This document shows positions 1 through 64,000 of a stretch of 64,000 nt of DNA, in pieces; within the stretch, counting starts at the first letter, position 1; each line of letters begins with the position of its first letter. The position numbers were made by a program, and so were the translations under genes. The DNA comes from a virus, in IMG/VR virus record IMGVR_UViG_3300023174_000064, positions 82,038 to 146,037 of that record; one strand, 5' to 3'. The notes beneath the pieces were generated by a model, which worked only from the letters and a program-made list of their open reading frames with translations, did not search any database and was not told where the DNA came from.

Positions 1-308
1 TCAGACAAATTTACTCGATCAAGATTTAACTTGATTGGTTTTCTGTCTTGATCTAAAACTATAGCTTCATTTACTATATCTTCAATAGCAGCATCCACTT
101 CTGGATACAATGCCATAGAACGATAATGTTGAATCATCTGGTTTTCGTCACGAACCGCACCAGAAAAATCAACAAATGTACCAAATACTCCACCAGTTTC
201 TAAAATATAAGAACCATCATAAGAATCTGGAGTGATAATATCACCAGTTTGTTTTGATGATTCTTGCTTTTTTTTACCTATAGAAAATCCAAATAATTCT
301 AATTCCAT
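1..308 (-). CDS. gp20: Portal vertex protein gp20, 5' part (truncated by window edge)
   Basis: Manual translation MELELFGFSIGKK...QMIQHYRSMALYPEVDAAIEDIVNEAIV, a T4-like portal N-terminal motif; follows gp19. Confidence 0.92.
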   Translation of the reverse strand, partial: MELELFGFSIGKKKQESSKQTGDIITPDSYDGSYILETGGVFGTFVDFSGAVRDENQMIQHYRSMALYPEVDAAIEDIVNEAIVLDQDRKPIKLNLDRVNLS

Positions 309-354
309 ATATTCACCATTTTGTTTTTAAATCACGCTATGATATGTAGTTGAT

Positions 355-894: not shown

Positions 895-906
895 GTGTGT
901 TCCTTT

Positions 907-2037: not shown

Positions 2038-2075
2038 TTATATAGTCCTTTATTCCGTTCCAATATTTATGTTTT

Positions 2076-3725: not shown

Positions 3726-4152
3726 CGTCTAAAAATTTCTGGCTGTCAAGAGCCTTGTTTCTGCTGCGATCTTTGTTTATTAGATCTTGTAATTCACTGG
3801 TAGAACCAACGTAAATTGAATTGTTAGTTGTATGATTAACTTTAATTTCTTCTTTCTTGATTGCTTTAGATTTTTGATATAAATCTATTAAATCTTTATT
3901 CATTTCTGAGACAGTTTTTAATAACTGTCCAAGAACTTCATAAGCTCTTGGTGAATCACCTGCTTTTGCAACTTTAAGAATTTCGTCTATTGCGCAAGAA
4001 CCATTATCAATCAATCCTTTAATGTTATCACGAACATAATTAAAATCTGCATCAAGACTAACACCTGTAGTGTTGTCTTTTTTTATGATAACTGGTTCCG
4101 ATCCTTTAAATTCTATACCTAAATTTTGAGAAATAATATCAGAAGAATCCAT
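3715..4152 (-). CDS. gp16: Terminase small subunit gp16
   Basis: SPRAYEVLGQL and TNNSIYVGSTSELQ motifs; overlaps gp17 start. Confidence 0.92.
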   Translation of the reverse strand: MDSSDIISQNLGIEFKGSEPVIIKKDNTTGVSLDADFNYVRDNIKGLIDNGSCAIDEILKVAKAGDSPRAYEVLGQLLKTVSEMNKDLIDLYQKSKAIKKEEIKVNHTTNNSIYVGSTSELQDLINKDRSRNKALDSQKFLDDGI

Positions 4153-4157
4153 ATAAT

Positions 4158-4826
4158 TTATACATTTCCATTTATAAGAGTTACTCCATCAATATCATAT
4201 ACATTAAAATTAACAGTTCGAATACTTGTACCAGTAGTAATTTTTCCATAAATGTACGATTTTGCAACAAACTGATAAGAACTAACAATAAATCTTCTGG
4301 TACTAAAATCACCTTCAAATTCTTGAGTTAAATTGCTGGTTGCTATACTAACAGGAACATCTATATTTTGGCTTAAACTATTCATATTTACTGATATTAA
4401 AAATTCAGGAGAAAAATAAGGAAGAATTTGTTCCATTATTTGTAAATTTTCTTCTAAATTTCTAGTAAAAATACTTAAATTAAACACAAAATTATAAGGA
4501 ACTTCGGCATAGGAATAACTGGCGGTTAGACCGTTATTGCTTATTTTTTTGTTTGTTTTATTTAATTTTCGTATAGGATCGTATATTATCTGAGACAATT
4601 CAAATGACATTCTAGGAAGAGAAATTTCTATACGTGTTTTATCGCTTATTGAACTGGGTTCAATTAAACGTTTTATAAATTTTTCTTTTGCAGTGTACAT
4701 CAAAGGAACAGTGAATATTCTTTCATCGCCATTTTCATCTGTCTGCTGTAGTTCAACGCCATTAAAAAGACTTCCAAAAGCAATAACGAGTTTTCTGATA
4801 GAATCATTTTTATAGTGTGAAAACAT
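4158..4826 (-). CDS. gp15: Tail sheath stabiliser/terminator gp15
   Basis: IRKLVIAFGSLFN, LPRMSFE and QIMEQILPYF motifs. Confidence 0.93.
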   Translation of the reverse strand: MFSHYKNDSIRKLVIAFGSLFNGVELQQTDENGDERIFTVPLMYTAKEKFIKRLIEPSSISDKTRIEISLPRMSFELSQIIYDPIRKLNKTNKKISNNGLTASYSYAEVPYNFVFNLSIFTRNLEENLQIMEQILPYFSPEFLISVNMNSLSQNIDVPVSIATSNLTQEFEGDFSTRRFIVSSYQFVAKSYIYGKITTGTSIRTVNFNVYDIDGVTLINGNV

Positions 4827-49957: not shown

Positions 49958-49963
49958 AGAACT

Positions 49964-50081
49964 GGGGGATCCATGGGGAAATCAGAAGGGGGGTATGGGG
50001 GTACCCTCTCGTATTTAAAAATTTAGAAACTGGGTGCAACCGGGGGATCCATGGGGAAATCGATAGGGGGGTATGGGGGGG
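49964..50081. repeat. G-rich direct repeat, 2 copies (GGGGGATCCATGGGGAAATC...AGGGGGGTATGGGGG)
   Basis: Copies start at 49964 and 50042. Confidence 0.85.
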
Positions 50082-50389
50082 TCTGCGTTATTAGAGGGAT
50101 GGATGGTGTCTCGACCGGGTAGACTTGCTAGCCCCGGATCCTTCCAGATGGGACCCGCTCCGTGCAACTGTCCGGACAGGACCCCCCTCCCCACGCTGTA
50201 TGCTTCCACCGCCCCCGGTGTCAACCGAAATGTTCTACAATCTTAATCTTAATAATTCAAAAAACTTTGTTAAGATTGTGTTAAGAAAAAAATCTGCATC
50301 TACTTCGCATCTACCCTATTGACTCGACTTGGCGACTTTGATATAGTGCACACATACCCATTGGGCCACAGGCCCGGAAAGACACTACC

Positions 50390-50833
50390 ATGCAGATCAA
50401 GCACCTCGTCTCGTCCGTCTTCACCGCCCTGAACCGCAGCATCACGGGCTACCGCCCGTTCTCGGCTCGTGACTGCCGGGTGGTGGAGACCAGCCGTTAC
50501 TCGCACGCGACCGACCGGGCCACGGGCAGCCGGGTGTACATGAGCAAGCCCGCGTCGGTGTTCTCGGGCACCACCGTCACCACGGGTGAGGTGCAGCGTG
50601 GCGACTCGGGCATCAGCCTGACCGTGTGCGAGAATGGCCGTGTGGTGTGGCGGGGCTGGGTCAAGGTGGAGGACGGCAAGGCGATCGCAGCCACCGTGAA
50701 CTCGGCCTGCATGAAGGCACAGCCTCGCACGGGCCGCGAGATGGCCAACACGGAGTGGGCCGACTTGGTTCGTGTGGCCGACCATGTGAAGGCCGACGCC
50801 CAGTACACCGCCTCGCTGTTCGACAACATCTAA
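50390..50833 (+). CDS. Early hypothetical protein
   Basis: Promoter, leader hairpin, GC3-rich codons, terminator follows. Confidence 0.75.
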   Translation: MQIKHLVSSVFTALNRSITGYRPFSARDCRVVETSRYSHATDRATGSRVYMSKPASVFSGTTVTTGEVQRGDSGISLTVCENGRVVWRGWVKVEDGKAIAATVNSACMKAQPRTGREMANTEWADLVRVADHVKADAQYTASLFDNI

Positions 50834-50843
50834 TGGTGGTGCG

Positions 50844-50876
50844 GGGAGGGGGGATGTTCCCCCCTCCCTCTTTCTT
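50844..50876 (+). terminator. Intrinsic terminator-like hairpin
   Basis: GGGAGGGGGGA-TGT-TCCCCCCTCCC then TCTTTCTT. Confidence 0.7.
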
Positions 50877-51037
50877 CCAACCCAACCAACGCGCCCGCCC
50901 CCGCTCTTCCTGCCTGTGTGAGTTCACCACAGCGAGGAGCCGGGGTGGCCCGCGTTGATAGTATTTGGTTATCAGTCTCGCAAATAAACTTGGAAATAGG
51001 GGTTGACACAGCACTCCCAACTTGTTAGAATGAACGC

Positions 51038-51334
51038 ATGACCACCAACAACAACAACCTTCCGCCCGTCGTTCAGATCGTGCTGCCCGTCACCACCGTC
51101 CGCAACCTGCTGACCCTGCTGGAAGAGTGCAGCAGCACCTGGTCGGTTGACACTGAAACTGTGACCGCCATCCGCCGCGAGTACACCAGCGAGATGATCC
51201 GCCACGGCATCATCCGCCCGAGCGAGGTGAGCGTGATGACCCCGGACGAGGATCACTCGCACGAGGACGCCACGCAGAACGAGTACGATGCGGACAACGC
51301 GTGGCTGCGCTCGGCAGGCTGGGGGGAAATGTGA
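51038..51334 (+). CDS. Leaderless early protein
   Basis: ATG 6 nt after TAGAAT. Confidence 0.75.
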   Translation: MTTNNNNLPPVVQIVLPVTTVRNLLTLLEECSSTWSVDTETVTAIRREYTSEMIRHGIIRPSEVSVMTPDEDHSHEDATQNEYDADNAWLRSAGWGEM

Positions 51335-51429
51335 TGATGTTCCTGCTCGGCCTGATCTTGTCCGTGGTGTTTGTTATGGGCATCGTGGCCCTAGATCACC
51401 TCACCTCCGAGTGGGGAAGTGGAGGCTGA
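51334..51429 (+). CDS. Small membrane peptide (31 aa)
   Basis: TGATG coupling; MMFLLGLILSVVFVMGIVALD. Confidence 0.5.
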   Translation: MMFLLGLILSVVFVMGIVALDHLTSEWGSGG

Positions 51430-51627
51430 TCTCACAAGCCGAACCGGGATTCGTCCCCTGCCACCCTTCGGGGTGGCTAGGCTTGTTGATAGTACAAGCT
51501 GGGTGTTCCGCTTGCTATTGTACCACGGGGGACTGGGCGTGTCAAGAGGGAAAATACCAAAAAAGAAAAAAAAGATTCCCCGTTCCACCCCCTTGACAAG
51601 CCACCCCCGATCCTGTATACTACCCGC

Positions 51628-51819
51628 ATGAACACCACCAACCCCATCTACGACAATGGCGACGACTCCTTCGACTGGCACGAGGAGGAGGAGGCCATGA
51701 CTCCCGAGCGGATCGCGGAGTTGGAGGAGTGTGTACGCCTCCACAATGCCGAGCAAAACGGCGAGTTTGTGGACCCGTACGGGTTCCACGAGGATCCCAA
51801 CCAAATGTACGACGAATAA
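51628..51819 (+). CDS. Leaderless acidic early protein
   Basis: ATG 6 nt after TATACT. Confidence 0.75.
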   Translation: MNTTNPIYDNGDDSFDWHEEEEAMTPERIAELEECVRLHNAEQNGEFVDPYGFHEDPNQMYDE

Positions 51820-51892
51820 GGCTTGACAAGCCTGTTCGGATCGTGTACACTACTTGAAACCCAACCGGGCCACAGGCCCAAAGGAAACCACC

Positions 51893-52201
51893 ATGTTTGA
51901 CGCTGCCACCATCGACCTGCACAACCTGCCCCCGGAACTGGATCGCATGGTTCAGACCCTGCTGATCGTGTCCCGCGAGGGCTGCACCGATGTCGGAGAA
52001 CTGATGCGACGCCTGTACGGAAATGTCTCCGACTACACCCCGAAGCAGCAGGACGAGTGCTGCACCCAGTACGCTCACATCCTGATGAAGATGTACGCGT
52101 GCAAGTGGATCACGGCTGCGGATGCCGAGTTCGTGGCCTTGACCGCCGCAGGCGTTGAAGCCGCCGACACCATGCGGGAGTTCTACCGGAACAACCCGTA
52201 A
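51893..52201 (+). CDS. Early protein, winged-helix-like
   Basis: AAGGA RBS; C-terminal LTAAG wing motif. Confidence 0.7.
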   Translation: MFDAATIDLHNLPPELDRMVQTLLIVSREGCTDVGELMRRLYGNVSDYTPKQQDECCTQYAHILMKMYACKWITAADAEFVALTAAGVEAADTMREFYRNNP

Positions 52202-52347
52202 CCGAAACACTGTGGTGGTGTCCAAGTCCCCTGATCAGAGGAGGGTCTGGTCAGGGGCAACCACCCCCAAACATCCCAGTCAAACGAACCCAGGCTTCGC
52301 AGGAGCCACCCCGGCCTAAACCACCGGGGCGGGTTTGTTGATAGTAT

Positions 52348-52420
52348 TGTTAAGATTGCGTTAAATTAATTTTGTGTTAAGATTTGGTTAAATTAATTTT
52401 GTGTTAAGATTTAATAAAAT
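52348..52420. repeat. AT-rich GTTAAGATT/GTTAAATTAA iterations (related blocks at 50269-50286 and 55115-55197)
   Basis: About 27-bp tandem unit; 33 bp identical between 52337 and 55104. Confidence 0.85.
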
Positions 52421-52552
52421 ATTTTAGGAGTCCACTTACTATTGTACCTCCTGGTTTATTGTGTGTCAATCCGGAAAATGCCCGGAATTTAAAAATAAAA
52501 ATCTGTGCCTGACCCCCTTGACAGGCGGGGCCGGATCCGGTATACTACCCGC

Positions 52553-52783
52553 ATGTGCAACACCACCACCACCATCTCCCCCGCCGCCTCCAACCTCGTT
52601 ATCACCTGCGTGGAACCCGAAATTTTTTGTGCGGAGTGTGGCTGTGAAATCTCGCCAGAAAACTGGCACTGTGCGCCCCAGTTTTGGGTGTATCGTTTCG
52701 GGGGTGGTCGCCACGAATGCTTGGAGTGCGGGAACGGCATTGAACCCGACGATCACGAACCGGGATTCGACCCTCAAGATTGA
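52553..52783 (+). CDS. Leaderless zinc-finger-like early protein
   Basis: ATG 6 nt after TATACT; CAEC..CLEC. Confidence 0.7.
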   Translation: MCNTTTTISPAASNLVITCVEPEIFCAECGCEISPENWHCAPQFWVYRFGGGRHECLECGNGIEPDDHEPGFDPQD

Positions 52784-52876
52784 GGGTTTTCTTTTTGTTG
52801 ATAGTACGGGCCGATAACCAGAACCCCCTCCACCGGGACTGGTTCCCAATGGAGGGGGCTGCGTTTGTTACCGGAC

Positions 52877-53029
52877 TTACCACTCGGTGTGGTCGATCCA
52901 CGGTTCCCAGTCATCGTGGCCGGGGTCGGTTGGCTCCTCGTTGTATTCCGGCCAGTTCTCTTGGAGGAACAGATCCTCGTTGTAGTCCGGGTGCTCCATG
53001 TCGTCGTCGGGGGTGGTGGGGTTCGTCAT
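52877..53029 (-). CDS. Leaderless very acidic peptide (50 aa)
   Basis: Minus promoter 53064-53036; MTNPTTPDDDMEHPDYNEDLFLQENWPEYNEE.. Confidence 0.7.
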   Translation of the reverse strand: MTNPTTPDDDMEHPDYNEDLFLQENWPEYNEEPTDPGHDDWEPWIDHTEW

Positions 53030-53136
53030 GCCCGGATTGTAACCGAAACTCCCGGCCCTGTCAAGAGGGAAACCAAATAAATTATTTCTGTGGCTACCCT
53101 ATTGACACAAGCCGGTCAGGTTGATATACTGCCTGC

Positions 53137-53301
53137 ATGAACCTCACCACCCAACTGATCAAGTATGAAGACGGCGAACTCACGCACGAAGAAACCGTGT
53201 GCCTGTTTCAGGAACTGCTCGACACAGGCATGATCGACCACCTGCAAGGCTCGTACGCTCGCGTGGCTCTGCACCTGTACAACAACGGCGAAATCGCCTG
53301 A
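53137..53301 (+). CDS. Leaderless early protein (54 aa)
   Basis: IKYEDGEL..EETVCLFQELLDTG...LQGSY.R, a recurrent phage family motif. Confidence 0.75.
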   Translation: MNLTTQLIKYEDGELTHEETVCLFQELLDTGMIDHLQGSYARVALHLYNNGEIA

Positions 53302-53313
53302 AAGGAACCCCCC

Positions 53314-53520
53314 ATGATCGTGAACATCTGCATCCATGTGCCTGACCTCGACCCCAACACCCCGTTGGCGTGGAACACCACCGACCGGATCGAACAGGAA
53401 CTGACCCCCGCCCTGCAACGGCTGACCGGATTCGGTCGGTACGGCAATTGGAACTGGTGGATCAATGTGGAGAACGGCGAAACCCGGTATATGCCGGAAA
53501 ATGTTTCGGAACTGTCTTGA
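53314..53520 (+). CDS. Early hypothetical protein
   Basis: AAAGGA RBS; stop lies within the next TTGACA. Confidence 0.65.
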   Translation: MIVNICIHVPDLDPNTPLAWNTTDRIEQELTPALQRLTGFGRYGNWNWWINVENGETRYMPENVSELS

Positions 53521-53551
53521 CACCGCACCCCGAACCGGATAGAATCCAACC

Positions 53552-53692
53552 ATGACCACCTGCCCCCGTTGCAACCACCCGGAAACCCCTGACCACCTGT
53601 CCGCATGGGAAGGTCTGTGCCAAAACTGTTGGGGGCAACTGGCCGAAGCCACCATGACCGACGAAGATCGGGAGTGGTTGGAAAAAAACTGA
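53552..53692 (+). CDS. Leaderless zinc-finger-like peptide (46 aa)
   Basis: ATG 6 nt after TAGAAT; CPRC..CQNC. Confidence 0.65.
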   Translation: MTTCPRCNHPETPDHLSAWEGLCQNCWGQLAEATMTDEDREWLEKN

Positions 53693-53744
53693 AATGTTTC
53701 AGAAACCGCTTGACATCGCACCCCAAACCGGATAGAATACACCC

Positions 53745-53999
53745 ATGACCACCAAGACCTACAACGGATACCGCAATGCAGCCACCTACCGCACCGCCCT
53801 GTGGCTCACCAACGAGGAGCCTCTGTACCGCACCATGGTTGAACACTTCCGCGAGGAGGAGATCACCACGGCGAACGCCCGGTTCTTCTGCAACCTGCTG
53901 TGGCCGTGTGCGGAGAACCCGGACGGCGACGAACTCGCTGATGTGTACTGGCCGGACATCGTTCGCGTCATCCAAGACTGCACCGACATCGAAAACTGA
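53745..53999 (+). CDS. Leaderless early protein (YNG..N..T...LW..N family)
   Basis: ATG 6 nt after TAGAAT; recurrent phage motif. Confidence 0.75.
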   Translation: MTTKTYNGYRNAATYRTALWLTNEEPLYRTMVEHFREEEITTANARFFCNLLWPCAENPDGDELADVYWPDIVRVIQDCTDIEN

Positions 54000-54041
54000 A
54001 CTTTTTTACTAACCCCAAACCCCAAGGAAGGGAACCTCACT

Positions 54042-54284
54042 ATGCCACGAGTCACCGCCAATCTGAAGTCTTTCACTCCCCGTCACGGCAAGATCCGGAT
54101 CACTTTCGCCCTGATGTTTATGAAGGGCAAGGGCTACGAGTACTCGGGTCGCGGCAAGATTGCCTCCTCCCGTAACAAGTGGCGGCCCGAGCGTGCCTAC
54201 TTCTTCACGAACCGTGCCACCGGACAGCGGCTGACCCTGACCACCTCTGATCTGCGTCAGGCGTTTGCCACCGGAACCGTCTAA
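54042..54284 (+). CDS. Basic early protein
   Basis: AAGGAAGG RBS. Confidence 0.65.
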   Translation: MPRVTANLKSFTPRHGKIRITFALMFMKGKGYEYSGRGKIASSRNKWRPERAYFFTNRATGQRLTLTTSDLRQAFATGTV

Positions 54285-54591
54285 CAAAGCCTGTGCCACG
54301 GGCTAAAGTGGCCGGGTTGGCCGTTTGCCTGCACCAAAAACGGCCCAGTCGCCCGTCTTGAATACTGGTAAAGGTTTGGAATCACCTACTTGAGGACTTC
54401 CCGCTTTTCCCCTTGAGTGTTATCAAGGGGTTTTTTCATTTCCGGAAAGTTGATAGTATTTAATTTAACCCAGACACTGTATTATATCACAGATTCCGGA
54501 ACCTGTCAAGTGGAAAACCGCCCGGAATAAAAAGATTTATTTCTGCGGTATAGGGCTTGACAAACCAACCCGGATGGTGTAGAATGACCAC

Positions 54592-54912
54592 ATGGAAACC
54601 ACCAACACCATCCCGGCCTGTCCGAACCCCAACCTGTACGAGTTCATCATCCGCGTGCGTGACCGTCGTCGCAAGACGGGCTATCGGGTTGTGGTGACCG
54701 AACAGCGAGAGTTCCCGGATGCCGACACCGCAAAGATTTACGCAGAGAAGATGGAAGGCACAGACGGTCGCTACATTGTGGAGTTTCATCAGTTTTGGGT
54801 GCTGAAGCAGAACTTCATGGCCTCACAGCCCGGGTTCCCGGCGTACTTTTGGGAGGCGTACAACACCCCGTACTGCTGCTCTCCTGCATCCGAACTGTAC
54901 TGGACGATGTGA
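54592..54912 (+). CDS. Leaderless early protein
   Basis: ATG 6 nt after TAGAAT; C-terminal NTPYCCSPASELYW motif. Confidence 0.75.
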   Translation: METTNTIPACPNPNLYEFIIRVRDRRRKTGYRVVVTEQREFPDADTAKIYAEKMEGTDGRYIVEFHQFWVLKQNFMASQPGFPAYFWEAYNTPYCCSPASELYWTM

Positions 54913-55647
54913 ACCAAGGGTGGCCGTACTCCCGGATTCCGGAATCCTAACGGCCTGCGTTGTACTGTGTAAGAGTCAACAGTACCGGGTGTGGAACCAC
55001 CTGTCCCAAGGTTCTAGGGAATGGGAACGCCCTATCGGAATCTCCCCGCCTTCTATTGGGTTCTTGAGCGTATCAAGAACCCTTTTTTATTATCGGACCA
55101 GGAGTTGATAGTATTGTTAAGATTGCGTTAAATTAAGATTGTGTTAAGTTTCGGTTAAGATTGGATTAATTTAAGTTTGTGTTAAGATTTGATTAACCGG
55201 AAAGTGGTCAGCCCGCCCTCCCAGCCCGATCTAGGGTAACACAGCAGGCGGAACCTGTCAACCCTGAAACCTCCCAGATTCTCAAAATTAATTTATTGGG
55301 ATTGCAGAATACTATCAACCCGCCCAGATCATCCCCGTACCTGTAGTGTACCACACTCTGCCTCCTCTGTCAACCCCCAAAATACCCGGAATGTAACAAA
55401 TAATTCTCGAGAAAATTTCAGATATTGGAGGATTCTGCTTGACTGGAAGAATCCGGGGTATGGGACGGCTGGGATGTGTGTGTTTGCGAGATAACCCGGA
55501 CATTCTCAAATATATTTCAGAATCTTACCCCACTTCCCCCCATTTCAACCCACTTTGAAATCGCCGATCAGCGTCGAGCATTATCAGACTCAAAAAATCC
55601 GCATTTCACCCCTTGACACCACGCCCCGGATCGGTTAGACTACCCCC

Positions 55648-55929
55648 ATGACCACCTTCACCTCATCCCGTTGGCGAAACCACCCGACCTACCTGTGTGC
55701 GTTGGAGGTGGAGATGGCGACCATCCCCGGCCCTGCGTTCGGTGCGTTCTTGGACTCCAATCCCGACCACCGCGACCACCATGAGGACACGGGCGAGTAC
55801 ACCATCTCGCCTGCGGCAGTCCGTGAGTGGTTCACCCTGAACCGTGCCGACCTGTTTGGCCCCGGTGACACCGATCTTGTGGACTGGACTGCCGTTGCCG
55901 CCTACATGGACACTTGGAACTGGTTCTGA
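55648..55929 (+). CDS. Leaderless early protein
   Basis: ATG 6 nt after TAGACT. Confidence 0.72.
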   Translation: MTTFTSSRWRNHPTYLCALEVEMATIPGPAFGAFLDSNPDHRDHHEDTGEYTISPAAVREWFTLNRADLFGPGDTDLVDWTAVAAYMDTWNWF

Positions 55930-55985
55930 AAAAAATCTGTTTCTTCCTCTTGACAAACACCCCAACACCTGATAGGATACACCCC

Positions 55986-56375
55986 ATGACCACCGTGACC
56001 TCCACCGCGCTCACCGCTCGCACCTCTGACCACCGATGGGATGATGACCTTCAAGCCGCCTACGCCGCAGGGAATGCCGCAGCGAACGCGATTGAGGTGG
56101 TTCCCATGACCGTGGTGGGCCGTGACCGCACCTACTGGGTGGAAGGCGGCGTGTGCGGGTTCGCTCGCGTCGAGGTTCGGCCTCGCACTTCTGCATGGGC
56201 CAAGTGGCTGCTGGCCACCGGGTGGCGTTCATCGGACTACTTCAAGTGCGTCACGCTGAACATTGACGGCTTCGGCCAGTCCATGCAGCGGAAGGAAGCG
56301 TTCGCCCAAGCGTTTGTTGACCACCTGACCCGGTTGGGCTACCCCGGCGTGTCGTACACCGCCACCATCGACTGA
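55986..56375 (+). CDS. Leaderless early protein
   Basis: ATG 7 nt after TAGGAT; GVCGFA.V...QSMQRKEAFA.AF motif. Confidence 0.75.
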   Translation: MTTVTSTALTARTSDHRWDDDLQAAYAAGNAAANAIEVVPMTVVGRDRTYWVEGGVCGFARVEVRPRTSAWAKWLLATGWRSSDYFKCVTLNIDGFGQSMQRKEAFAQAFVDHLTRLGYPGVSYTATID

Positions 56376-56427
56376 AAAAATCCAAAAAGTTCTTGACCAC
56401 CCCACCCCTGAAAGGTACAATCCTCCC

Positions 56428-56727
56428 ATGAGAATCACCGCCAACCGATTGGAAACCCGTCTTGCGTTCATCAACCGTATGCTGGGCCGTCCTGCCACCC
56501 CGTACACCTACACCGCCAAGACTGTGGCCAATGTCGGCTGCTGGTACTTGAGTGCCAGCGAGTACGGGTACGAGGTGCTGGAGATTGTGACGGAGTCGGG
56601 TGGTGTCCAAGTGGTGTACCCGGCCATGCGTCCCAGCATCCTGTACGCCGTGCTGGGCGGGTTCTTGGACGGCATCAAGGCTCGTGGAACGGTGGATGAA
56701 GCCTACGCCACCACCTGTTCCATCTGA
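56428..56727 (+). CDS. Leaderless early protein
   Basis: ATG 6 nt after TACAAT. Confidence 0.75.
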   Translation: MRITANRLETRLAFINRMLGRPATPYTYTAKTVANVGCWYLSASEYGYEVLEIVTESGGVQVVYPAMRPSILYAVLGGFLDGIKARGTVDEAYATTCSI

Positions 56728-56781
56728 AATAAATCCATTTTCCCTCTTGACACCACGCCCAACCCCGGATACAATCCATCC

Positions 56782-57045
56782 ATGACCTTGACCACCACCA
56801 TCCAGTACTTGCGAAACAACGAAATCATCACTTCGGAAACCCGCAGTTTCCGGGGCAGGTGGATCGGAAACATTGAACGCAAGGCGATGCACCACGCCCA
56901 AGGTGACAGGCTGTTTGTGTACTGCAACCGGATCAACATCCTGTGTGAACTGCCGCACGGTGGCGTGAGCAACACCACATGGATTCTGACCCACCCGGTT
57001 CGACCGCTTGCAGAACTTGAATCAAAGTGTTTGGAAACTGCTTGA
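56782..57045 (+). CDS. Leaderless early protein
   Basis: ATG 6 nt after TACAAT; stop in next TTGACA. Confidence 0.7.
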   Translation: MTLTTTIQYLRNNEIITSETRSFRGRWIGNIERKAMHHAQGDRLFVYCNRINILCELPHGGVSNTTWILTHPVRPLAELESKCLETA

Positions 57046-57076
57046 CACCCCAACCCCTGAAAGGTAAACTACACCC

Positions 57077-57403
57077 ATGAAATGCCCCACCAACCTGCTG
57101 CCTGAAAACCTGCCGCAAGACTTCGTGCAAGCGGCTGCCGTTTGCATCACCATCCAAGCGTTCGACAACATCCCGTGCCATGTGCAAGCGATCTACGACG
57201 GCCTGTACGGGGATGCGGTTGACCCGGATGCCGCCAAGCGGGAGTTGAGCCGGATGCTGGCCCGGATGGTTCGTGTGGGCCTGATCACCATGCCCAGCCA
57301 GTCCGGTACGGTGATCCTGACCGATAAGGGCGACGAAGCCGCCACCACATTCCGCGAGTTGTGGGTGGGTTCCGGCATCCTCGATCTGTCCGACCTGTGC
57401 TGA
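57077..57403 (+). CDS. Leaderless winged-helix-like early protein
   Basis: ATG 6 nt after TAAACT; GLI...ILTDKG. Confidence 0.7.
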   Translation: MKCPTNLLPENLPQDFVQAAAVCITIQAFDNIPCHVQAIYDGLYGDAVDPDAAKRELSRMLARMVRVGLITMPSQSGTVILTDKGDEAATTFRELWVGSGILDLSDLC

Positions 57404-57523
57404 AAAAATCTGAAAAAGGGACTTGACATGATCGACTTTCTGTGTTACACTACCGCTGTGATGATTGCCACTCCGTTGGTGGCAACCTTCGTGACCTACT
57501 ACAGCCATGAGGACTTCTGACCC

Positions 57524-57730
57524 ATGACCACTCACACCATCATCGTGTTTCCCGACGGGGAAACTTGGAACACGGCAGATGGCTCTGCCATCATGGTCAT
57601 CACCGACCAGCAGTTCCGTGATCTGATTGAAGGCCGCATCAACGCAGGAGACATTCCGGCGATTGCGTCCATCTCGCTGGCAGACTTCACACCCGGCCCC
57701 CGCAACGGCTCACAGGAGAACACCAAGTGA
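57524..57730 (+). CDS. Early hypothetical protein
   Basis: GAGGA RBS. Confidence 0.65.
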   Translation: MTTHTIIVFPDGETWNTADGSAIMVITDQQFRDLIEGRINAGDIPAIASISLADFTPGPRNGSQENTK

Positions 57731-58005
57731 ACCACACACGGCCACCCATCCTGCCCGCAGCACGCAGTCGGATACTGCCTGTGCGGTGGTGCATGGAAGT
57801 GCTGTGGTGGGCTGGCTGGATTCACGAACGCACCATGACCATTGGTGGTTATCGGACTTACATCTGCCTCGACCCGGCAGGCCGGGTGAACTACCTGACC
57901 ACCTACGGGCTGCGACAGGCTGCATACGAGAACTACAGCAAGTACTGGCAAGAAAATCACTACCTCTTGACAACACCTCCAACACAAGGTACAATCCACA
58001 CATGA
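57727..58005 (+). CDS. Early hypothetical protein
   Basis: GTGA coupling. Confidence 0.5.
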   Translation: MNHTRPPILPAARSRILPVRWCMEVLWWAGWIHERTMTIGGYRTYICLDPAGRVNYLTTYGLRQAAYENYSKYWQENHYLLTTPPTQGTIHT

Positions 58006-58154
58006 TGAATCCGCAAGGCAAATGGTGCATCTACGATCCGCGACTCGACGGCTTTATTGCCGAATACTCCACCATGCTGGAGGCCCGGTCGTGGCTCGAC
58101 ATGACGCAGCCACCTGATACTGAACTGACTGTTGTGTTCGTGCCCGGTAACTAA
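58002..58154 (+). CDS. Leaderless early peptide (50 aa)
   Basis: ATG 6 nt after TACAAT. Confidence 0.65.
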   Translation: MMNPQGKWCIYDPRLDGFIAEYSTMLEARSWLDMTQPPDTELTVVFVPGN

Positions 58155-58175
58155 CCCCAAACAGAAAGAACCCCG

Positions 58176-58457
58176 ATGCTGCCTGAAGAACCTGACATGA
58201 CCATGAGCGAACTTCACGAGATGCTGGCCCAAGAACTGCCGCCTGCCAAGATTGAGAGGGCGGTGGAGGACTTGATTGCCAAAGGCATGGTGGAAACGCT
58301 GTGGGATGCTGACGGCAATGTGTCCTACCGCCTGACTGCCATCGGTCGTGTGGTGGGCAAGGCGATCAACGACCAGTACCAGTACGACACCGAACAGCAC
58401 GACGGCTGGCTGGGTGACGGCTGGGATGACGAGGGCTGGGATGACGGAGAAATCTGA
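58176..58457 (+). CDS. Winged-helix-like protein with acidic tail
   Basis: LIAKGMVE...YRLTAIG. Confidence 0.65.
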   Translation: MLPEEPDMTMSELHEMLAQELPPAKIERAVEDLIAKGMVETLWDADGNVSYRLTAIGRVVGKAINDQYQYDTEQHDGWLGDGWDDEGWDDGEI

Positions 58458-58512
58458 AATAGTTTCAGATTCACTATTGACACACGCTGCAACACCGGAT
58501 ACAATCCACACC

Positions 58513-58785
58513 ATGAAGAACCCCCAATTCAACGACGAGTTCGATCACACCAACGATGACGGGTACTACCAGTTTCAAGACTCGCAGGACATCCGCGACG
58601 AGTGGCTGCGTGAGGAGGAAGAGTACTGGAGCGAGGGCACACTCGACCCGGCAGACTCCGGCGAGTACGACCCGGTGGACGAGTCCGATAACTCTGAAGC
58701 CACCGATGAGTGGAGTGACGAGGACATGGACGAGACTCCCATCGGCCTTGAGTACGACGGGTACAACGATCCCGATAACTTCTGA
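58513..58785 (+). CDS. Leaderless extremely acidic protein
   Basis: ATG 7 nt after TACAAT; D/E dominated. Confidence 0.72.
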   Translation: MKNPQFNDEFDHTNDDGYYQFQDSQDIRDEWLREEEEYWSEGTLDPADSGEYDPVDESDNSEATDEWSDEDMDETPIGLEYDGYNDPDNF

Positions 58786-58902
58786 ACATTGCGGCTCTCA
58801 CTTGCAGGACTACGCTCTCCTTCGGGAAGCCTGCTTGAGAGTTGTGAAAAAAAGTTTGGTTTCCCTCTTGACACCACACACCCAATCGGGTACAATACAC
58901 AC

Positions 58903-59076
58903 ATGAACAAGCCTGTCACCATCACCCTGACCAACAAGCAAGCACACCTGATGCTGGACTACTTGAGCGATCTTCACTTCGATGGAGAAGCCCAAGTGTA
59001 CAACGAGGATGTGCCTGACCTGCGAACCATTGTGGACACCTTGGCTGACACCATCGAACAAACGGAGAACGCATGA
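58903..59076 (+). CDS. Leaderless early protein
   Basis: ATG 6 nt after TACAAT. Confidence 0.7.
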   Translation: MNKPVTITLTNKQAHLMLDYLSDLHFDGEAQVYNEDVPDLRTIVDTLADTIEQTENA

Positions 59077-59291
59077 CAGACGAAGCAGACAACGACGAAG
59101 GCAACCCCAGCACCGCGAAGCGAGCCACCTACCATATCATCATCGAAGCCAGCGATGTGGAGGACACCGAGTTTCAGGTGGAGGAAGTGAACGACCTGAC
59201 CGAACAACTGGGCCGGATGCTTTCATTCAACGGCACGGTGTGGCTGGACGAGGTGGAGTACGACGAGGACACCAACGAGGAGGAAGTCTGA
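59073..59291 (+). CDS. Acidic early protein
   Basis: ATGA coupling. Confidence 0.65.
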   Translation: MTDEADNDEGNPSTAKRATYHIIIEASDVEDTEFQVEEVNDLTEQLGRMLSFNGTVWLDEVEYDEDTNEEEV

Positions 59292-59560
59292 TGGCAACGC
59301 TGCGAGCCTGTTACTTGAACGATCCCAACGCGATCCGTGACTTCATGGTGCGCCATGTGGTGTTCCGTGTGAAGTTCCGCAAGAAGGATGGCACGATCCG
59401 TAGCCTGCTGGGCACGGTGGAGCCGGGGTTTCTTGGTGTGAACACACCAAACGGCACAGGCAATCCGAACTATGACGAAGCCATCCCTGTCTACGACATG
59501 GAGAGGCAAGCATGGCGTGCGTTCAAGCCGGACAATGTGTTGGAACTTCACTCTGTCTGA
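59291..59560 (+). CDS. WYL-like/SH3 (DUF2693-type) protein
   Basis: VKFRKKDGTIRSLLGT...VYDMERQAWRAFK. Confidence 0.78.
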   Translation: MATLRACYLNDPNAIRDFMVRHVVFRVKFRKKDGTIRSLLGTVEPGFLGVNTPNGTGNPNYDEAIPVYDMERQAWRAFKPDNVLELHSV

Positions 59561-59630
59561 AATAATTTCAGAAATCACTTGACACTCACCCCAAACTGTG
59601 GTACAATCCACACAACGAAAGGACACACAC

Positions 59631-59957
59631 ATGACGAACGACCAATGGAAACTGTGGGAAGACAGCATGGCACTTGCACCTGAAATCACGACGGCAATGT
59701 TCAATGCCCGCGTGAAGGAGATGACGCAGGCCGAAGTGATTGACCTGTCTCGTTGCCTGCTGACCGTGACTCGCTGCATTGAGAGTCTCGCTGCTGGCCG
59801 CATCACGGAGAAGCGTGATGTGGAGGACTTGGCTGACCTCACCATGAGCATGATGAGCGGAATGTACGGCAGGCTGATGGGGTTGGCAAGGGCGTATGAC
59901 ACGCTCATCACCAAGCAGGTGATGCTGGAGGCTGAACTGGCCTCGACGGGGAAGTGA
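59631..59957 (+). CDS. Early hypothetical protein
   Basis: Promoter plus AAAGGA RBS. Confidence 0.7.
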   Translation: MTNDQWKLWEDSMALAPEITTAMFNARVKEMTQAEVIDLSRCLLTVTRCIESLAAGRITEKRDVEDLADLTMSMMSGMYGRLMGLARAYDTLITKQVMLEAELASTGK

Positions 59958-60026
59958 TACTGGTTTGGGGTTGCCTGCCGCCGGATGAAACACTCCGGCG
60001 GTAGGTTTATGGAGGAAGCACACTCA

Positions 60027-60230
60027 ATGTACATCGTTCTCGCTGTGGCAATCCTTGCCACCATCATCGTTCTTGGCATCCAGTTTGTTCTGTTCGTGAT
60101 CGACCACGAACGCCGCGAACAACTCCGCGACCTGTACGAAGCCAAGCAGGACAAGTTCCTGAATGTGTACACCAAGTCCGATAACAACAGCAAGTACCGC
60201 AAGACCAAGCAGACCAAGCGAAAGAAATAA
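60027..60230 (+). CDS. Small single-TM protein
   Basis: GGAGG RBS; N-terminal hydrophobic helix. Confidence 0.6.
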   Translation: MYIVLAVAILATIIVLGIQFVLFVIDHERREQLRDLYEAKQDKFLNVYTKSDNNSKYRKTKQTKRKK

Positions 60231-60293
60231 TTTCAGAAGTGGGCTTGACACACACCACACCTTGTGGTACAATCCCAGCACGAAGGAAACACC

Positions 60294-60890
60294 ATGACAA
60301 CCCCCAAGTTCAACATCGTCCAAGTGTACGCCAGTCTGAACGCCAAGCCCGGAGGCTCGCAGCACACTCGTCTGCTGTGTGTGGAGATGGGCATTGTGTT
60401 TGTGACTGTCACCTCGCCTGCCACAGACGGTGGTTGGACTTCACAGTACCTGTGGTGCTGGCCCCGTGTGAACGGTCTGTCTCAAACATGGCTGCTGGGT
60501 GACAACATCGGCGGCAAGGACGGCAAGCCGTGGACACGCAACGATCCCAACACAGCGGTGGACGGCATGGGCATTCCATACGCTCACACCGATGCGGTGG
60601 CACACATCACCGCGCTGGCAGCAGCCGGGTATGTGGATTGGAGCAAGGCTGCCTACAGCGGCAGACCGATTCCCAATCTGTTCAGCGATGCCACCCTGAT
60701 GCCACAGTCTTACGCCAAGGTGACTCCACCCGGCAAGCCCACGCAACGACAGGCTTCCAACGATCCGCTGCAAGTGCAGGGACAAAGCCCGGTTCACGAA
60801 ATCGCTGATCTCATCAACTCGTTGGGGATTCAGACTGTGTTTCCCACCACCGAAGATATGAACGCCATCAGCAAGATGAACCCGCTATGA
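60294..60890 (+). CDS. Early hypothetical protein
   Basis: Promoter plus AAGGA RBS. Confidence 0.72.
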   Translation: MTTPKFNIVQVYASLNAKPGGSQHTRLLCVEMGIVFVTVTSPATDGGWTSQYLWCWPRVNGLSQTWLLGDNIGGKDGKPWTRNDPNTAVDGMGIPYAHTDAVAHITALAAAGYVDWSKAAYSGRPIPNLFSDATLMPQSYAKVTPPGKPTQRQASNDPLQVQGQSPVHEIADLINSLGIQTVFPTTEDMNAISKMNPL

Positions 60891-61222
60891 AGAATCCAAA
60901 CATGACATCACAGGAATACATGGAACGGTTGCGTGAGGAAGGTGCAGCAGGCATCGGGTGGTTCAACCACCGTGGCGTGCGGTACACTCTGAAAACCAGC
61001 AGGCGAAATACCATCCCGGTGCAGACCGCACTTCACATTCTGTTGCTGGAAGGATGGACGGATGTGGAGTACTACACCGCACTTCGGGTGTACCGTGCCC
61101 GGAACCCGGATGGTGAATGGGTCGATATGTCGGTGGACACCGTGCGGTGGACTGCACTTCACATTGTGTACTGTGGAATGAAAAAGACGAAAAGTTCATT
61201 TGACAACCCGCAACCTGTGTGA
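60887..61222 (+). CDS. Early hypothetical protein
   Basis: ATGA coupling. Confidence 0.6.
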   Translation: MKNPNMTSQEYMERLREEGAAGIGWFNHRGVRYTLKTSRRNTIPVQTALHILLLEGWTDVEYYTALRVYRARNPDGEWVDMSVDTVRWTALHIVYCGMKKTKSSFDNPQPV

Positions 61223-61234
61223 TACAATACCACC

Positions 61235-61435
61235 ATGCCAAAGCGACACATCGACCAATTCGACATTGAAGCAGAGCGTGAAGGTGCAGCCGTGCGTCTG
61301 TCCGGCCAGCAGGTGTGCAAGCCGTTTGGCTATGGCCGTGGTATCACCAAGCAGCGTCGAATGCAGAAGGACGGCGCAGCCAAGGTGGAGTGCCGTACCA
61401 TCAAGCAATCGTTCGGAAAGTTTTCCTATGCGTAA
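61235..61435 (+). CDS. Leaderless basic early protein
   Basis: ATG 6 nt after TACAAT. Confidence 0.65.
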   Translation: MPKRHIDQFDIEAEREGAAVRLSGQQVCKPFGYGRGITKQRRMQKDGAAKVECRTIKQSFGKFSYA

Positions 61436-61640
61436 GTGCATGAAGTGTGACTGCGAGATTCCTGCTGTTCGGTTGGAAGCCCTGCCGTACACCACGACCT
61501 GTGTGAAGTGCAGCACCACCAAGGCATATGTGGGGTTCATGTCATTTGCCCACAAGACCGCCCCCGACATTGTGATGGTCAACCCTGATGACAGGGAGAA
61601 CTTGCGTCGGGCTGTGGCGATCCATGAAAGGCGACGATAA
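61428..61640 (+). CDS. TraR/DksA C4-type zinc finger protein
   Basis: CMKCDCEIPAVRLEALPYTTTCVKC. Confidence 0.8.
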   Translation: MRKCMKCDCEIPAVRLEALPYTTTCVKCSTTKAYVGFMSFAHKTAPDIVMVNPDDRENLRRAVAIHERRR

Positions 61641-61930
61641 TGTGCAACACATGGCGTGAACGATACGGCCCAGCAGTAGACTCCGATCAGACTGTGGAGT
61701 GTGTGATGTGTGGTTACACACTACATGGCGATGATCCACCAATCGGCGTGGTGTGTCTTGATTGCTGGAATGGTGGTCAGATTCTCCGTGACCGCGTGGT
61801 GTGCAACGGCTGTGCGTCCGATAACGGATGGCACGGCGACAAGACCACCACCGATACACACCCTGATGGATTCACCTGCGATGAGTGTGGCGAAACTTTC
61901 CCTTGCGAAAATCTTTCGGAAAACACTTGA
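61640..61930 (+). CDS. Cys-rich early protein
   Basis: TAATG coupling; four CxxC motifs. Confidence 0.6.
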   Translation: MCNTWRERYGPAVDSDQTVECVMCGYTLHGDDPPIGVVCLDCWNGGQILRDRVVCNGCASDNGWHGDKTTTDTHPDGFTCDECGETFPCENLSENT

Positions 61931-61961
61931 CACCCACCACTCCCTGTGGTACAATACACAC

Positions 61962-62171
61962 ATGAGCAACGACGATCTCGACCACCTGTGCAAGATGCTG
62001 CAAAACTCCCACGACACCGCCTCCAAGGTGACTGGCATGGATGACACCATGTTCTTGCAGGCGTTGGATGGCATCAAGTGGCTGCGTGCCAAGTTGAAGC
62101 AGTACCAGCGAGCAGAGGCAGCAGCCGCAATGGATCGGCTGTCACAGTTTGACGAGGAGAACGGCCTGTGA
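61962..62171 (+). CDS. Leaderless early protein
   Basis: ATG 6 nt after TACAAT. Confidence 0.7.
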   Translation: MSNDDLDHLCKMLQNSHDTASKVTGMDDTMFLQALDGIKWLRAKLKQYQRAEAAAAMDRLSQFDEENGL

Positions 62172-62419
62172 ACAACCCATACAACGAACTACCACACCCG
62201 GTGTTCCTGCGATATGTGGCACAGAACGACTACATGATCGACGGGTACTACCTGCCGGAAGGTGTGCGACTGAACGCAGCGGCGGATGAACTGGAGTCTC
62301 TACAGATTCGGTACGACGAACTGTGGAAGGCACACCAGCGGCTGGCACAGACCTGCAAGGAAGCAGAGGAGCGTGTTGACACTCTCCTAGAGCGTGTGAA
62401 AGAACGAGTACGCCCATGA
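62168..62419 (+). CDS. Early coiled-coil protein
   Basis: GTGA coupling. Confidence 0.6.
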   Translation: MNNPYNELPHPVFLRYVAQNDYMIDGYYLPEGVRLNAAADELESLQIRYDELWKAHQRLAQTCKEAEERVDTLLERVKERVRP

Positions 62420-62748
62420 GTGACTACAAGCAGGCTGAACACTATGCAGGCATGAGCATCGAACGATGGGAAAGCCTGATGAAGAAGGTGGACGCAAACA
62501 CCGCAAGTGATGCAGACTTGACACCGGGCGAGCGTGGTGCTGGCTGGCACTTCTGCTCGCTGGGCTGGGATGGTCTGCTGATCTCTCCCATCGACTTGGA
62601 GTACAAGCATTGCGGATGCCCGGACAAGCAGCACCACAAGCGGGAGGCTTCATACTATGAACGGCTGCTGAAGGTAAAGCAATGGATCAAAGCAGAACCA
62701 CGAGACTACCCCCAAGACTTTCAAGAAAAGTTTGGAAATAAGGATTGA
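62416..62748 (+). CDS. Early hypothetical protein
   Basis: ATGA coupling; GWHFC..WDGLLI motif. Confidence 0.65.
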   Translation: MSDYKQAEHYAGMSIERWESLMKKVDANTASDADLTPGERGAGWHFCSLGWDGLLISPIDLEYKHCGCPDKQHHKREASYYERLLKVKQWIKAEPRDYPQDFQEKFGNKD

Positions 62749-62779
62749 CAACATCCACAACCTGTGGTACAATACACAC

Positions 62780-63124
62780 ATGACCAAGACCAAAGCCAAG
62801 ATCGTTTCGCACAAGCCGAAGTTCCTGCCACTCAACCGTCCTGTCAAGGGCACGGTGGGCCTGCAAGTTCACTTCGACGGCTACGCTCTGCCCAACTTTG
62901 GCGAGAGCGACACGGAGGTAGAAGTTCTCCGTGACATCCGTGAGGAGTTGGGCAAGCCGTTCAACAAGCGGATTGTGTACGCAGGCGATGGTGGTTCGAT
63001 GGACTACTTCTACATGGAGTGGGAAGGCAAGCCCAAGGACATGGCTCGTCTTGCCAAGTGGTTCCGTGAGGGCGACCAGTATCCTTTGCTCGCCATTCAC
63101 ACCGTGGAAATCTTCAAGATTTGA
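62780..63124 (+). CDS. Leaderless early protein
   Basis: ATG 6 nt after TACAAT. Confidence 0.72.
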   Translation: MTKTKAKIVSHKPKFLPLNRPVKGTVGLQVHFDGYALPNFGESDTEVEVLRDIREELGKPFNKRIVYAGDGGSMDYFYMEWEGKPKDMARLAKWFREGDQYPLLAIHTVEIFKI

Positions 63125-63161
63125 TCTTGACACACACCCAAACATCAGGTACAATACACAC

Positions 63162-63593
63162 ATGACCAAGACCAACAACAACCGTGTGCGAGCCAAGGCC
63201 CGCAAGTCCCCGAAGTCTCTCCGTGATCTGAACACGGCCAAGATGAATGCCGTGATGTACAAGTTCATCCCGGCTGTCTACGATCTCCATGTGGAGTTCA
63301 CACTCACGGGCGATCAGGACTTGAATGATCCGGTGGACTTCCTGCCACGCAACCTGTCTCGACTGGAGATGGGTAGCGGTTACTGCATGATGACGGGAAT
63401 GCGTGACTTTCACTTCCGTGGCACAGAGCAGGAGATGAAGAACATCATGCGCCAGTTCTGTTCCAGCCCGTTCAAGGTGTACAAGTTCTATGTGTACCCG
63501 GACGGAGATCACTTCAACGAGTTCAACGACAGCGTGCGGCAGAAGGCGTTTGCCCGTGCAGAGCGTCGGGCCAAGACCAAGAGGAGCAAGTGA
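63162..63593 (+). CDS. Leaderless early protein
   Basis: ATG 6 nt after TACAAT. Confidence 0.72.
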   Translation: MTKTNNNRVRAKARKSPKSLRDLNTAKMNAVMYKFIPAVYDLHVEFTLTGDQDLNDPVDFLPRNLSRLEMGSGYCMMTGMRDFHFRGTEQEMKNIMRQFCSSPFKVYKFYVYPDGDHFNEFNDSVRQKAFARAERRAKTKRSK

Positions 63594-63892
63594 TGGACGG
63601 CATCATCAGCACATTCAAGTCTCGCTACGGCGACACACGCACCGTGACCCAACTGGACGAGGAGACTCTGATCCTTGAAGGCACAACCATGTACACCCGT
63701 GGAAGTGATGGTGATGACGGGCAACTCATGGTGGACTTTGAGGGTGGCCCGTTCCTGACCAAAGGCATGGACATCCGGGTACACTTGGGATGCCCGATGG
63801 ATGGTGTCATCAAGACCATGCGGTTCCTGCCCAGCGACCGACCCAACCACGCCAAGGTTGAGGTGAAGATCAAGCCCGGTCAGCAGCGTTGA
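63593..63892 (+). CDS. Early hypothetical protein
   Basis: TGATG coupling; SRYGD.R...VDFEGGPFL motif. Confidence 0.7.
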   Translation: MDGIISTFKSRYGDTRTVTQLDEETLILEGTTMYTRGSDGDDGQLMVDFEGGPFLTKGMDIRVHLGCPMDGVIKTMRFLPSDRPNHAKVEVKIKPGQQR

Positions 63893-63958
63893 AACTGCCC
63901 CGGCCACTTTGACGGCTGTGTGCGTACAACCGTTCGTGTTGACTTATTCATCGGCCTT

Positions 63959-63991
63959 GCCCCCTCCGTTATGGGGGCTTTTTTGTTTTTT
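63959..63991 (+). terminator. Intrinsic terminator
   Basis: GCCCCC...GGGGGC followed by TTTTTTG. Confidence 0.75.
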
Positions 63992-64000
63992 GTTGATAGT

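Follow-up and report, generated by a model that had tools for sequence, protein, structure and literature searches.

The virus record IMGVR_UViG_3300023174_000064 is a single contig of 146,037 bp, the last 64 kb of which constitute the window considered here, i.e., the whole stretch of DNA that was analysed; positions below are those of the window unless designated as genome positions. Because of a T4-type large terminase, 55% identical to the terminases of cyanomyoviruses, together with gp6- and gp53-like baseplate genes, the phage is identified from its gene content as an uncultured T4-like myovirus. Towards its end, the window comprises a block of early genes high in guanine plus cytosine (GC) and, within this block, several copies of a 10-nucleotide (nt) word, hereafter M1, namely GTTGATAGT(A/T) and, in the form exhibited by this genome, GTTGATAGTA. 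The relatives with which this freshwater phage is compared originate from lake metagenomes and were retrieved (i) via the terminase (G001), (ii) via the protein P0002 of 203 amino acids (aa) in metagenome contigs (L166-L171, 74-99% identity), and (iii) via homologues of a 106-aa early protein (L104 and L172-L178, 53-95% identity).

The high-GC early block and its repeated word

The GC content, which ranges from 27 to 44% over most of the genome, reaches 52-59% at window positions 50,100-64,000 and at genome positions 1-4,300. In the near-identical contig L167, the gap from contig end to contig start amounts to only 1,274 bp, which hold a CobS-like AAA+ gene, so that the high-GC block forms a single uninterrupted early stretch of about 19 kb; the assembly break of the present contig falls inside a copy of M1. 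The block is made of ORFan microgenes and carries about 30 near-consensus promoters of the form TTGACA-N17-TAnAAT, promoter-like sites numbering 40 against 6.8 expected. At most early promoters an ATG is encountered 6-7 nt past the -10 element, and the messenger RNAs of most early genes would therefore be leaderless. The GC island, about 20 points over the remaining genome, is also seen in L104, L167 and L171-L177, and may correspond to a host-like composition for immediate expression.

In the entire genome, M1 is present as nine exact copies plus one cut by the contig end. Seven exact copies belong to the window (copies 3 to 9; Table 1), where 0.17 would be expected from shuffles, none of which reached seven, and two more are found outside it, at genome positions 3646 and 4152, in the wrap-around part of the high-GC block. 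All ten are thus inside this block, of which M1 is the most repeated 10-mer. Respective to a third-order Markov model, the block exhibits nine copies versus 0.017 expected, and the other 127.8 kb of the genome none versus 0.41 expected. Nine of the ten copies belong to the plus strand. Every window copy is intergenic when judged by a promoter-anchored gene model, and copy 2 (genome position 4152) overlaps the stop codon of an HNH-like open reading frame (ORF). The word has no degenerate halo in the block, where the nine exact copies are accompanied by one site with one mismatch, which is coding and due to chance, and five sites with two mismatches, these inexact sites being explained by coding sequence or promoter -10 regions. 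The first-pass annotation had listed the exact copies together with the cut copy at 63992, described all of them as intergenic, placed the seven plus-strand ones within about 20 nt downstream of a hairpin or terminator, and noticed no exact copy in the first 50 kb. This description holds, and the pattern is stronger than described there: all listed copies were found, the cut copy being complete in L167, the measured distances are 0-21 nt, none is present in window 1-50000, and M1 is absent from coding DNA genome-wide, as well as kept at orthologous places in the relatives.

Table 1. Position of M1 copies and of accompanying features (window coordinates unless stated otherwise).
Feature	Position	Strand	Remarks
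High-GC early block	50100..64000, continuing at genome 1-4300	+	GC 52-59%, about 30 consensus promoters, mostly leaderless genes
M1 copy 3 (GTTGATAGTA)	50954..50963	+	0-1 nt past stem-loops 50904-50953; terminator 50843-50869 upstream
M1 copy 4	51485..51494	+	stem-loop of -24 kcal/mol directly upstream; complement at +17..+26 of minus-strand promoter 51545..51517
M1 copy 5	52337..52346	+	stem-loop of -23.3 kcal/mol upstream; followed by AT-rich 27-bp tandem repeats 52348-52420
M1 copy 6, between two convergent units	52797..52806	+	8 nt past terminator 52769-52788
M1 copy 7	54449..54458	+	18 nt past terminator 54409-54430; complement at +17..+26 of minus-strand promoter 54509..54481
M1 copy 8	55104..55113	+	21 nt past terminator 55058-55082, one TTATCGGAC between; followed by AT-rich repeats 55115-55196
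M1 copy 9, sole reversed copy	55310..55319	-	at +20..+29 of minus-strand promoter 55373..55345
M1 copy 10, cut by contig end, nine bases left	63992..64000	+	13 nt past terminator 63959-63978
Consensus promoter toward copy 4	51517..51545	-	11/12 matches; no ORF after
Consensus promoter toward copy 5, through AT-rich repeats	52441..52469	-	
Promoter of leaderless 50-aa gene 53029..52877	53036..53064	-	gene end abuts copy 6
Perfect consensus promoter toward copy 7	54481..54509	-	12/12 matches
Promoter upstream of reversed copy 9	55345..55373	-	
AT-rich module	52348..52420	+	27-bp tandem units, GTTAA words 11 bp apart
Second AT-rich tandem module	55115..55196	+	
TTATCGGAC copies	genome 3630, 3661, 3683; window 55090, 57849, 58683, 60176, 61816		

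Conservation of M1 and exchange of modules across it

Eleven related contigs, whose neighbouring proteins are 53-99% identical, yield 43 distinct instances of M1, and every contig covering the orthologous region has the word at the corresponding places. Copy 3, for instance, is orthologous in L104, L172 and L174, and copy 10 is complete at position 5700 of L167, followed there by the CobS-like gene. Positions 1-9 are invariant in the 43 instances, and position 10 is A in 39 and T in four, such a T always preceding GC; position 11 is T in 33, and the information content falls to about 0 bits in the flanks on both sides. At 11 orthologous places, each represented by one pair, the 40-nt flanks differ at 115 of 880 positions (13.1%) and M1 at none of 110, giving P of about 2e-7 were M1 drifting like its flanks, a test that is somewhat circular as the instances were collected by the word itself. 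A search of the same loci allowing one mismatch returned GTTGATAGTT as the sole intergenic variant.

Distant homologues of P0002 (about 25% identity) exhibit neither M1 nor the consensus promoters, which restricts M1 to a narrow lineage. Of the 61 matches returned by a 17-mer scan of IMG/VR, all are coding and due to chance except that to the L104 contig, and the single copies in L085 and L099 are likewise chance occurrences in coding sequence. Searches with blastn of the block against the INPHARED phage database returned no match, those of IMG/VR with the 768-aa CobT-like protein no close relatives, those of GTDB genomes with the phage GMP reductase, aimed at the host, no relative, and those of Rfam no family. 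In the literature, querying the 10-mer or its complement returned unrelated primers only, no relevant paper containing the word. Inspection against the consensus sites led to rejecting IHF, Fur, NtcA, LexA, the DnaA box and the integron core as candidates.

Beyond what was described in the first-pass annotation, M1 is the exact junction of shuffled modules, brackets inserted cassettes and belongs to an architecture resembling the PeSL considered below. When the 40-nt sequences on either side of each instance are clustered separately, one upstream type, the stem-loop of copy 4, occurs with three downstream types, a promoter module on the downstream side occurs with four upstream types, and the AT-rich module with three; as judged by this clustering, upstream and downstream modules are shown to combine freely across M1. 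Between L174 and the present genome an apparent reciprocal exchange is visible, where L174 associates, on the one hand, the upstream side of copy 4 with a downstream side of the copy-5 type and, on the other hand, the upstream side of copy 5 with a downstream side resembling copy 4 (by eye, the clustering having kept these last two apart). In BLAST comparison of L104 with the present genome, the similarity switches partner exactly at M1. As regards cassettes, a 506-bp unit with an EndoVII/HNH-like gene (phrog_3322, E 6e-14) is bracketed by two direct M1 copies in this genome, L166, L168 and L169, a different HNH gene is found at the same place between two copies of GTTGATAGTT in L170, and the empty site comprises one M1 copy in G001 and L167 or a tandem pair (M1-tt-M1) 12 bp apart in L171. 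In L174 and L175, it is a 40-nt AT-rich module that is bracketed by two direct M1 copies. The EndoVII/HNH-like gene (147 aa, genome 3713-4156), present in some strains and absent from others, resembles in this respect the polymorphism of free-standing homing endonucleases. Cassette gain and loss also occur in an 8-kb part of the block free of M1, so that M1 is a preferred joint and not a requirement for shuffling; its conservation therefore argues for another function.

In several respects, this architecture is reminiscent of the promoter-early stem-loop (PeSL) and promoter-middle stem-loop (PmSL) cassettes of T4-type phages (Arbiol et al. 2010, PMC2839356; Comeau et al. 2014, PMC4122927). Common to both are (i) a T4-like myovirus with a hyperplastic early region of small, variable ORFan genes, (ii) units with a stem-loop terminator on one side and, on the other, a near-consensus sigma-70 promoter whose upstream part is AT-rich, stem-loops and consensus promoters here sharing the same intergenic spaces with M1 between them, (iii) a repeated regulatory sequence, here M1, at the insertions, deletions and replacements observed between close relatives, including swaps of flanks, and (iv) cassettes flanked by direct repeats, the topology expected of mini-circle integration. 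The published definition, however, consists of a promoter and a stem-loop, without description of a separate invariant polar 10-mer in between; the crossover point here is M1 and not the promoter, the genes are leaderless whereas PeSL genes are Shine-Dalgarno-led, and backward consensus promoters at a fixed distance, as well as the GC island, do not figure in the published description. M1 is then an extra element in PeSL-like cassettes, absent from the published PeSL description, and the repeated unit of this phage holds a strictly conserved polar 10-mer as the actual joint, in fixed relation to antisense-directed promoters.

Exact junctions, freely combining types and cassettes bracketed by direct copies with a single copy at the empty sites of L167 and G001 also speak for M1 being the target of a site- and strand-specific DNA enzyme, either as a nick site or as the core of a cassette recombination or endonuclease system, although we consider this rather improbable. 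In phage tf, 14 sites of TACTRTGMC are all on one strand (PMC3517423), and M1, near-invariant, short, non-palindromic and strand-biased, has the likeness of the nick motifs of tf, phiKMV-like phages and T5, which are almost invariant, repeated about 10-14 times and nearly all on one strand (PMC3517423). The near-invariant, one-strand character of localised nick sites is found in M1, with nine of ten copies on the plus strand and a sole variant at position 10. Yet the tf sites are distributed genome-wide and their nicking was shown biochemically, whereas M1 is confined to the intergenic boundaries of one block, and the two sequences are unrelated save for a shared TACT on the complement. Moreover, the contig yielded no recombinase of the tyrosine or serine type, some relatives retain M1 while lacking the HNH gene, cassettes are exchanged equally in the M1-free 8 kb, and the enzyme would leave unexplained both the site behind terminators and the fixed spacing to minus-strand promoters. 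To our knowledge, nicks are unknown in T4-like phages, which also counts against it; should M1 serve for nicking or recombination, no earlier site of this kind would be known from a T4-like phage. The likeness to the attC sites of integrons, namely a recombination word starting with GTT at the 3' end of a hairpin-forming sequence behind a cassette gene and direct copies flanking cassettes, does not extend further: GTTGATA of M1 departs from the core GTTRRRY, M1 has no inverse core to pair with, the cassettes carry their own promoters, and the contig has no match to PF00589, i.e., no integrase.

Stem-loops, backward-facing promoters and companion elements

All seven plus-strand copies of the window are preceded, 0-21 nt upstream, by stem-loops. 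Before copies 6, 7, 8 and 10 these are canonical hairpin-plus-T-run terminators, and before copies 3, 4 and 5 GC stem-loops lacking a T-run, copy 3 having in addition a canonical terminator (50843) 85 nt upstream; as such, all five strong hairpin-plus-T-run terminators have M1 behind them. No convincing hairpin was found at the reversed copy or at the two copies outside the window. M1 is not an integral part of an intrinsic terminator, since its distance to the hairpin varies from 0 to 21 nt and three copies are hairpin-less. The terminator hairpins at 54409-54430 and 55058-55082, as well as those of L174, L176 and L177, have a common core, CTTGAG-CGTA-TCAAG, the 3' arm of which, TATCAA, is complementary to TTGATA in M1, an alternative pairing in read-through RNA being conceivable.

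The minus strand of the block carries five near-perfect, backward-facing consensus promoters. At copies 4, 7 and 9 and in relatives, M1 is positioned between +14 and +29 of such a promoter, in either orientation. In L176 and L177, the complement of M1 is found at +14 to +23 or +17 to +26 of a minus-strand promoter with a different intervening sequence, and the spacing of the reversed copy 9 (+20 to +29) is kept in L104, L172 and L175 despite a different spacer sequence. Copy 6 is followed by the hairpin terminating the minus-strand gene 53029..52877. Toward plus-strand promoters no fixed spacing is found, the distance from M1 to the -35 element downstream of it ranging from 39 to more than 150 nt.

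The proximity of stem-loops and start sites raises the question of M1 as a compact promoter or sigma-binding element itself, an unlikely explanation in our view. It may take two forms, i.e., a promoter word specific to the phage, in the manner of the invariant late box of T4 (TATAAATA), and sitting behind a stem-loop as in PeSL/PmSL, or a -10-like element (TGaTAGTAT on one strand, TACTAT on the other) holding a sigma-polymerase complex in a promoter-proximal pause. Sigma-dependent pauses are induced at such promoter-proximal positions, as at lambda PR', and the position of M1 at +14 to +29 of consensus promoters, with TAnTAT on both strands, agrees with the second form; invariance, strand bias, the intergenic site upstream of the next gene and the stem-loop directly upstream, which is the PeSL/PmSL geometry, all fit as well, and three copy families have a conserved TAAATT 17-18 bp past TTGATA. 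Because a -10 element at that distance is confined to these families, TTGATA was discarded as a general -35 element. Against a promoter, the would-be -7T is T in only 33 of the 43 instances and the A-to-T variant destroys the hexamer; M1 does not conform to the sigma-70 extended -10 element (TGnTAnnnT) either, its middle bases being invariant and the variant GTTGATAGTTG lacking the final T. Most contexts provide no fixed -10 or -35 partner, the information content being about 0 at +11 to +30, and the -10 element that a T4 MotA-dependent middle promoter would have 11-13 bp past its box is missing, no signal being conserved at +21 to +29. M1 is absent from all non-early genes, and hence is no general middle promoter; the downstream genes are leaderless from their own promoters, without a Shine-Dalgarno sequence for a longer transcript, and copy 6 would fire antisense into a gene. 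Among the proteins, a single weak match to sigma region 2, probably the gp55 late factor, was obtained, and none to MotA (MotA_activ), for which the control was uninformative.

Transcription through M1 in one direction or the other brings in a further explanation, in line with the RNA processing signal proposed by the first-pass annotation, which stands as an alternative of low likelihood. M1 would act in RNA as a single-stranded word beside a protective 3' hairpin, either cut by an endoribonuclease or paired with a complementary RNA, where the partner may be the minus-strand transcripts carrying the exact complement at +17 to +26 and the outcome the processing of read-through. A run of ten letters, sharply bounded and invariant in an all-or-none manner, is what one typically sees with base pairing, each copy, even the reversed one, is carried in the sense direction by some predicted transcript, the three upstream stem-loops without T-run may be stabilisers rather than terminators, and the strong promoters yield RNAs carrying the M1 complement. 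Four copies are nonetheless behind canonical hairpin-plus-T-run terminators, so that M1 would seldom be transcribed there; cis-antisense pairing would need no conserved word; and neither a match in Rfam nor any cover at M1 in the RNA run X1 was obtained.

AT-rich tandem modules adjoin two copies of M1 in this genome and up to four in L174, with consensus promoters firing in. Such an arrangement is reminiscent of the transcription-primed origins of T7 and T4, and a primase or origin element had been proposed for M1 at first sight. This proposal suits the two to four copies concerned and fails for the remaining ones, as most copies have no AT-rich module and ten copies over 18 kb do not make an origin layout. 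The related idea of a DNA-injection pause site finds no support in a T4-like and presumably circularly permuted genome, T4-like genomes having no fixed entering end; an origin, priming or injection role of M1 is altogether very improbable. As to the modules themselves, another one with 27-bp tandem units is found at 50228-50290, the 11-bp phasing of GTTAA is that used by response regulators of the OmpR/PhoB type, and the minus-strand consensus promoters firing into them recall transcription-primed origins.

A second word, TTATCGGAC, has eight exact copies in the genome, every one of them within the high-GC block, and four are inside coding sequence. It has the appearance of an operator, being often 3-8 nt from M1 and arranged in inverted arrays that cover the HNH-like gene promoter.

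M1 as a candidate boundary site between early units

M1 is a real and selected element, polar, confined to the intergenic boundaries of the early block and recognised all-or-none. Its repetition, confinement to the early block, conservation and geometry, as well as the shuffling of modules, are observed; beyond these, we infer that its recogniser is a DNA-binding protein and that the effect is a block of transcription. The reading favoured here, with a probability of roughly 0.38, is that M1 would be the DNA site of a very specific factor that forms a boundary or roadblock from one early unit to the next, shuffling being a by-product. A highly sequence-specific factor, encoded by the phage or the host, would recognise M1 and thereby mark the boundaries of early transcription units; bound just past each stop hairpin, it would halt read-through polymerases, and bound at +14 to +29 of the backward-facing promoters, it would keep their transcripts out of the upstream gene, M1 thereby behaving as a roadblock, insulator or operator. 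Being the only sequence common to all unit ends, M1 would also have become, through recombination between its copies, the joint for the exchange of terminator sides and promoter sides and for the gain and loss of cassettes, as has been proposed for the PeSL cassettes of T4-type phages.

This boundary reading is preferred because it accounts at once for the site behind terminators, the site after backward starts, the tandem copies, the companion words and the restriction to the early block, and also because M1 is conserved where shuffling does not need it. Operators and roadblocks typically occupy such an orientation-independent place just past a start site. Protein roadblocks include those of LacI type and the polar terminator proteins Reb1, TTF-I and mTERF of eukaryotes; as in such roadblock terminators and operators, M1 is a specific word found shortly past a T-rich release element or a start site, with a polar bias. 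We know of no such dedicated roadblock system for a phage early region. A stronger version, in which M1 would constitute a dedicated polar boundary system with one factor and one strict 10-bp word set past every early terminator and ahead of the backward-facing promoters, a phage counterpart of Reb1, TTF-I and mTERF whose word doubles as cassette crossover core without a known recombinase, is more doubtful.

Several points weigh against the boundary reading. All-or-none recognition would be no less expected of an enzyme or of base pairing, the sites of transcription factors are usually somewhat degenerate, unlike M1, and a simple roadblock does not require a 9:1 strand bias. With a hairpin-to-M1 distance varying from 0 to 21 nt, M1 is therefore out of register with the termination point. 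The sole public RNA run that contains part of the window (X1, Logan contigs, share 0.06) provides seven short pieces from coding parts of a related strain, none over M1, and is uninformative on transcript starts and ends. As regards the binder, the roadblock site proposed at first sight fits the place of M1 behind terminators and at +14 to +29, but no M1-binding protein was identified among the candidates examined. In favour of a binder, the block encodes several small proteins, possibly winged-helix, among which the 102-aa early protein (51893-52198) is 80-96% identical in all relatives found where neighbouring proteins drop to 53%, and has a 24%-identical paralogue of 108 aa at 57077-57400; another small early protein, of 93 aa, is encoded at 58176-58454. 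The AlphaFold model of the 102-aa protein has a pLDDT of 48.6 and is unusable, and the ESM Atlas returned for it only winged-helix leads at 0.86, which is sub-threshold.

Should a factor bind M1, this phage would possess a novel means of keeping dozens of very strong promoters insulated from one another, and M1 would also be a compact and portable boundary element for synthetic gene circuits. Either way, M1 offers a concrete 10-bp handle for finding the responsible protein among the unannotatable early ORFans.

Two further repeats were observed next to the high-GC block or in its wrap-around part. At 49958-50075, where the late minus-strand genes meet the early block, two copies of a G-rich 40-nt unit (GGGGGATCCATGGGGAAATC...) are present, which is 82% conserved in L104. 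Iteron-like repeats of TTACGAATTTCCTATT, in both orientations, occupy genome positions 4170-4215 and 4560-4710 around a Zn-ribbon (FmdB-like) gene at genome 4241-4540 and are also found in G001, this Zn-ribbon gene having a T4-type late promoter (TATAAATA).

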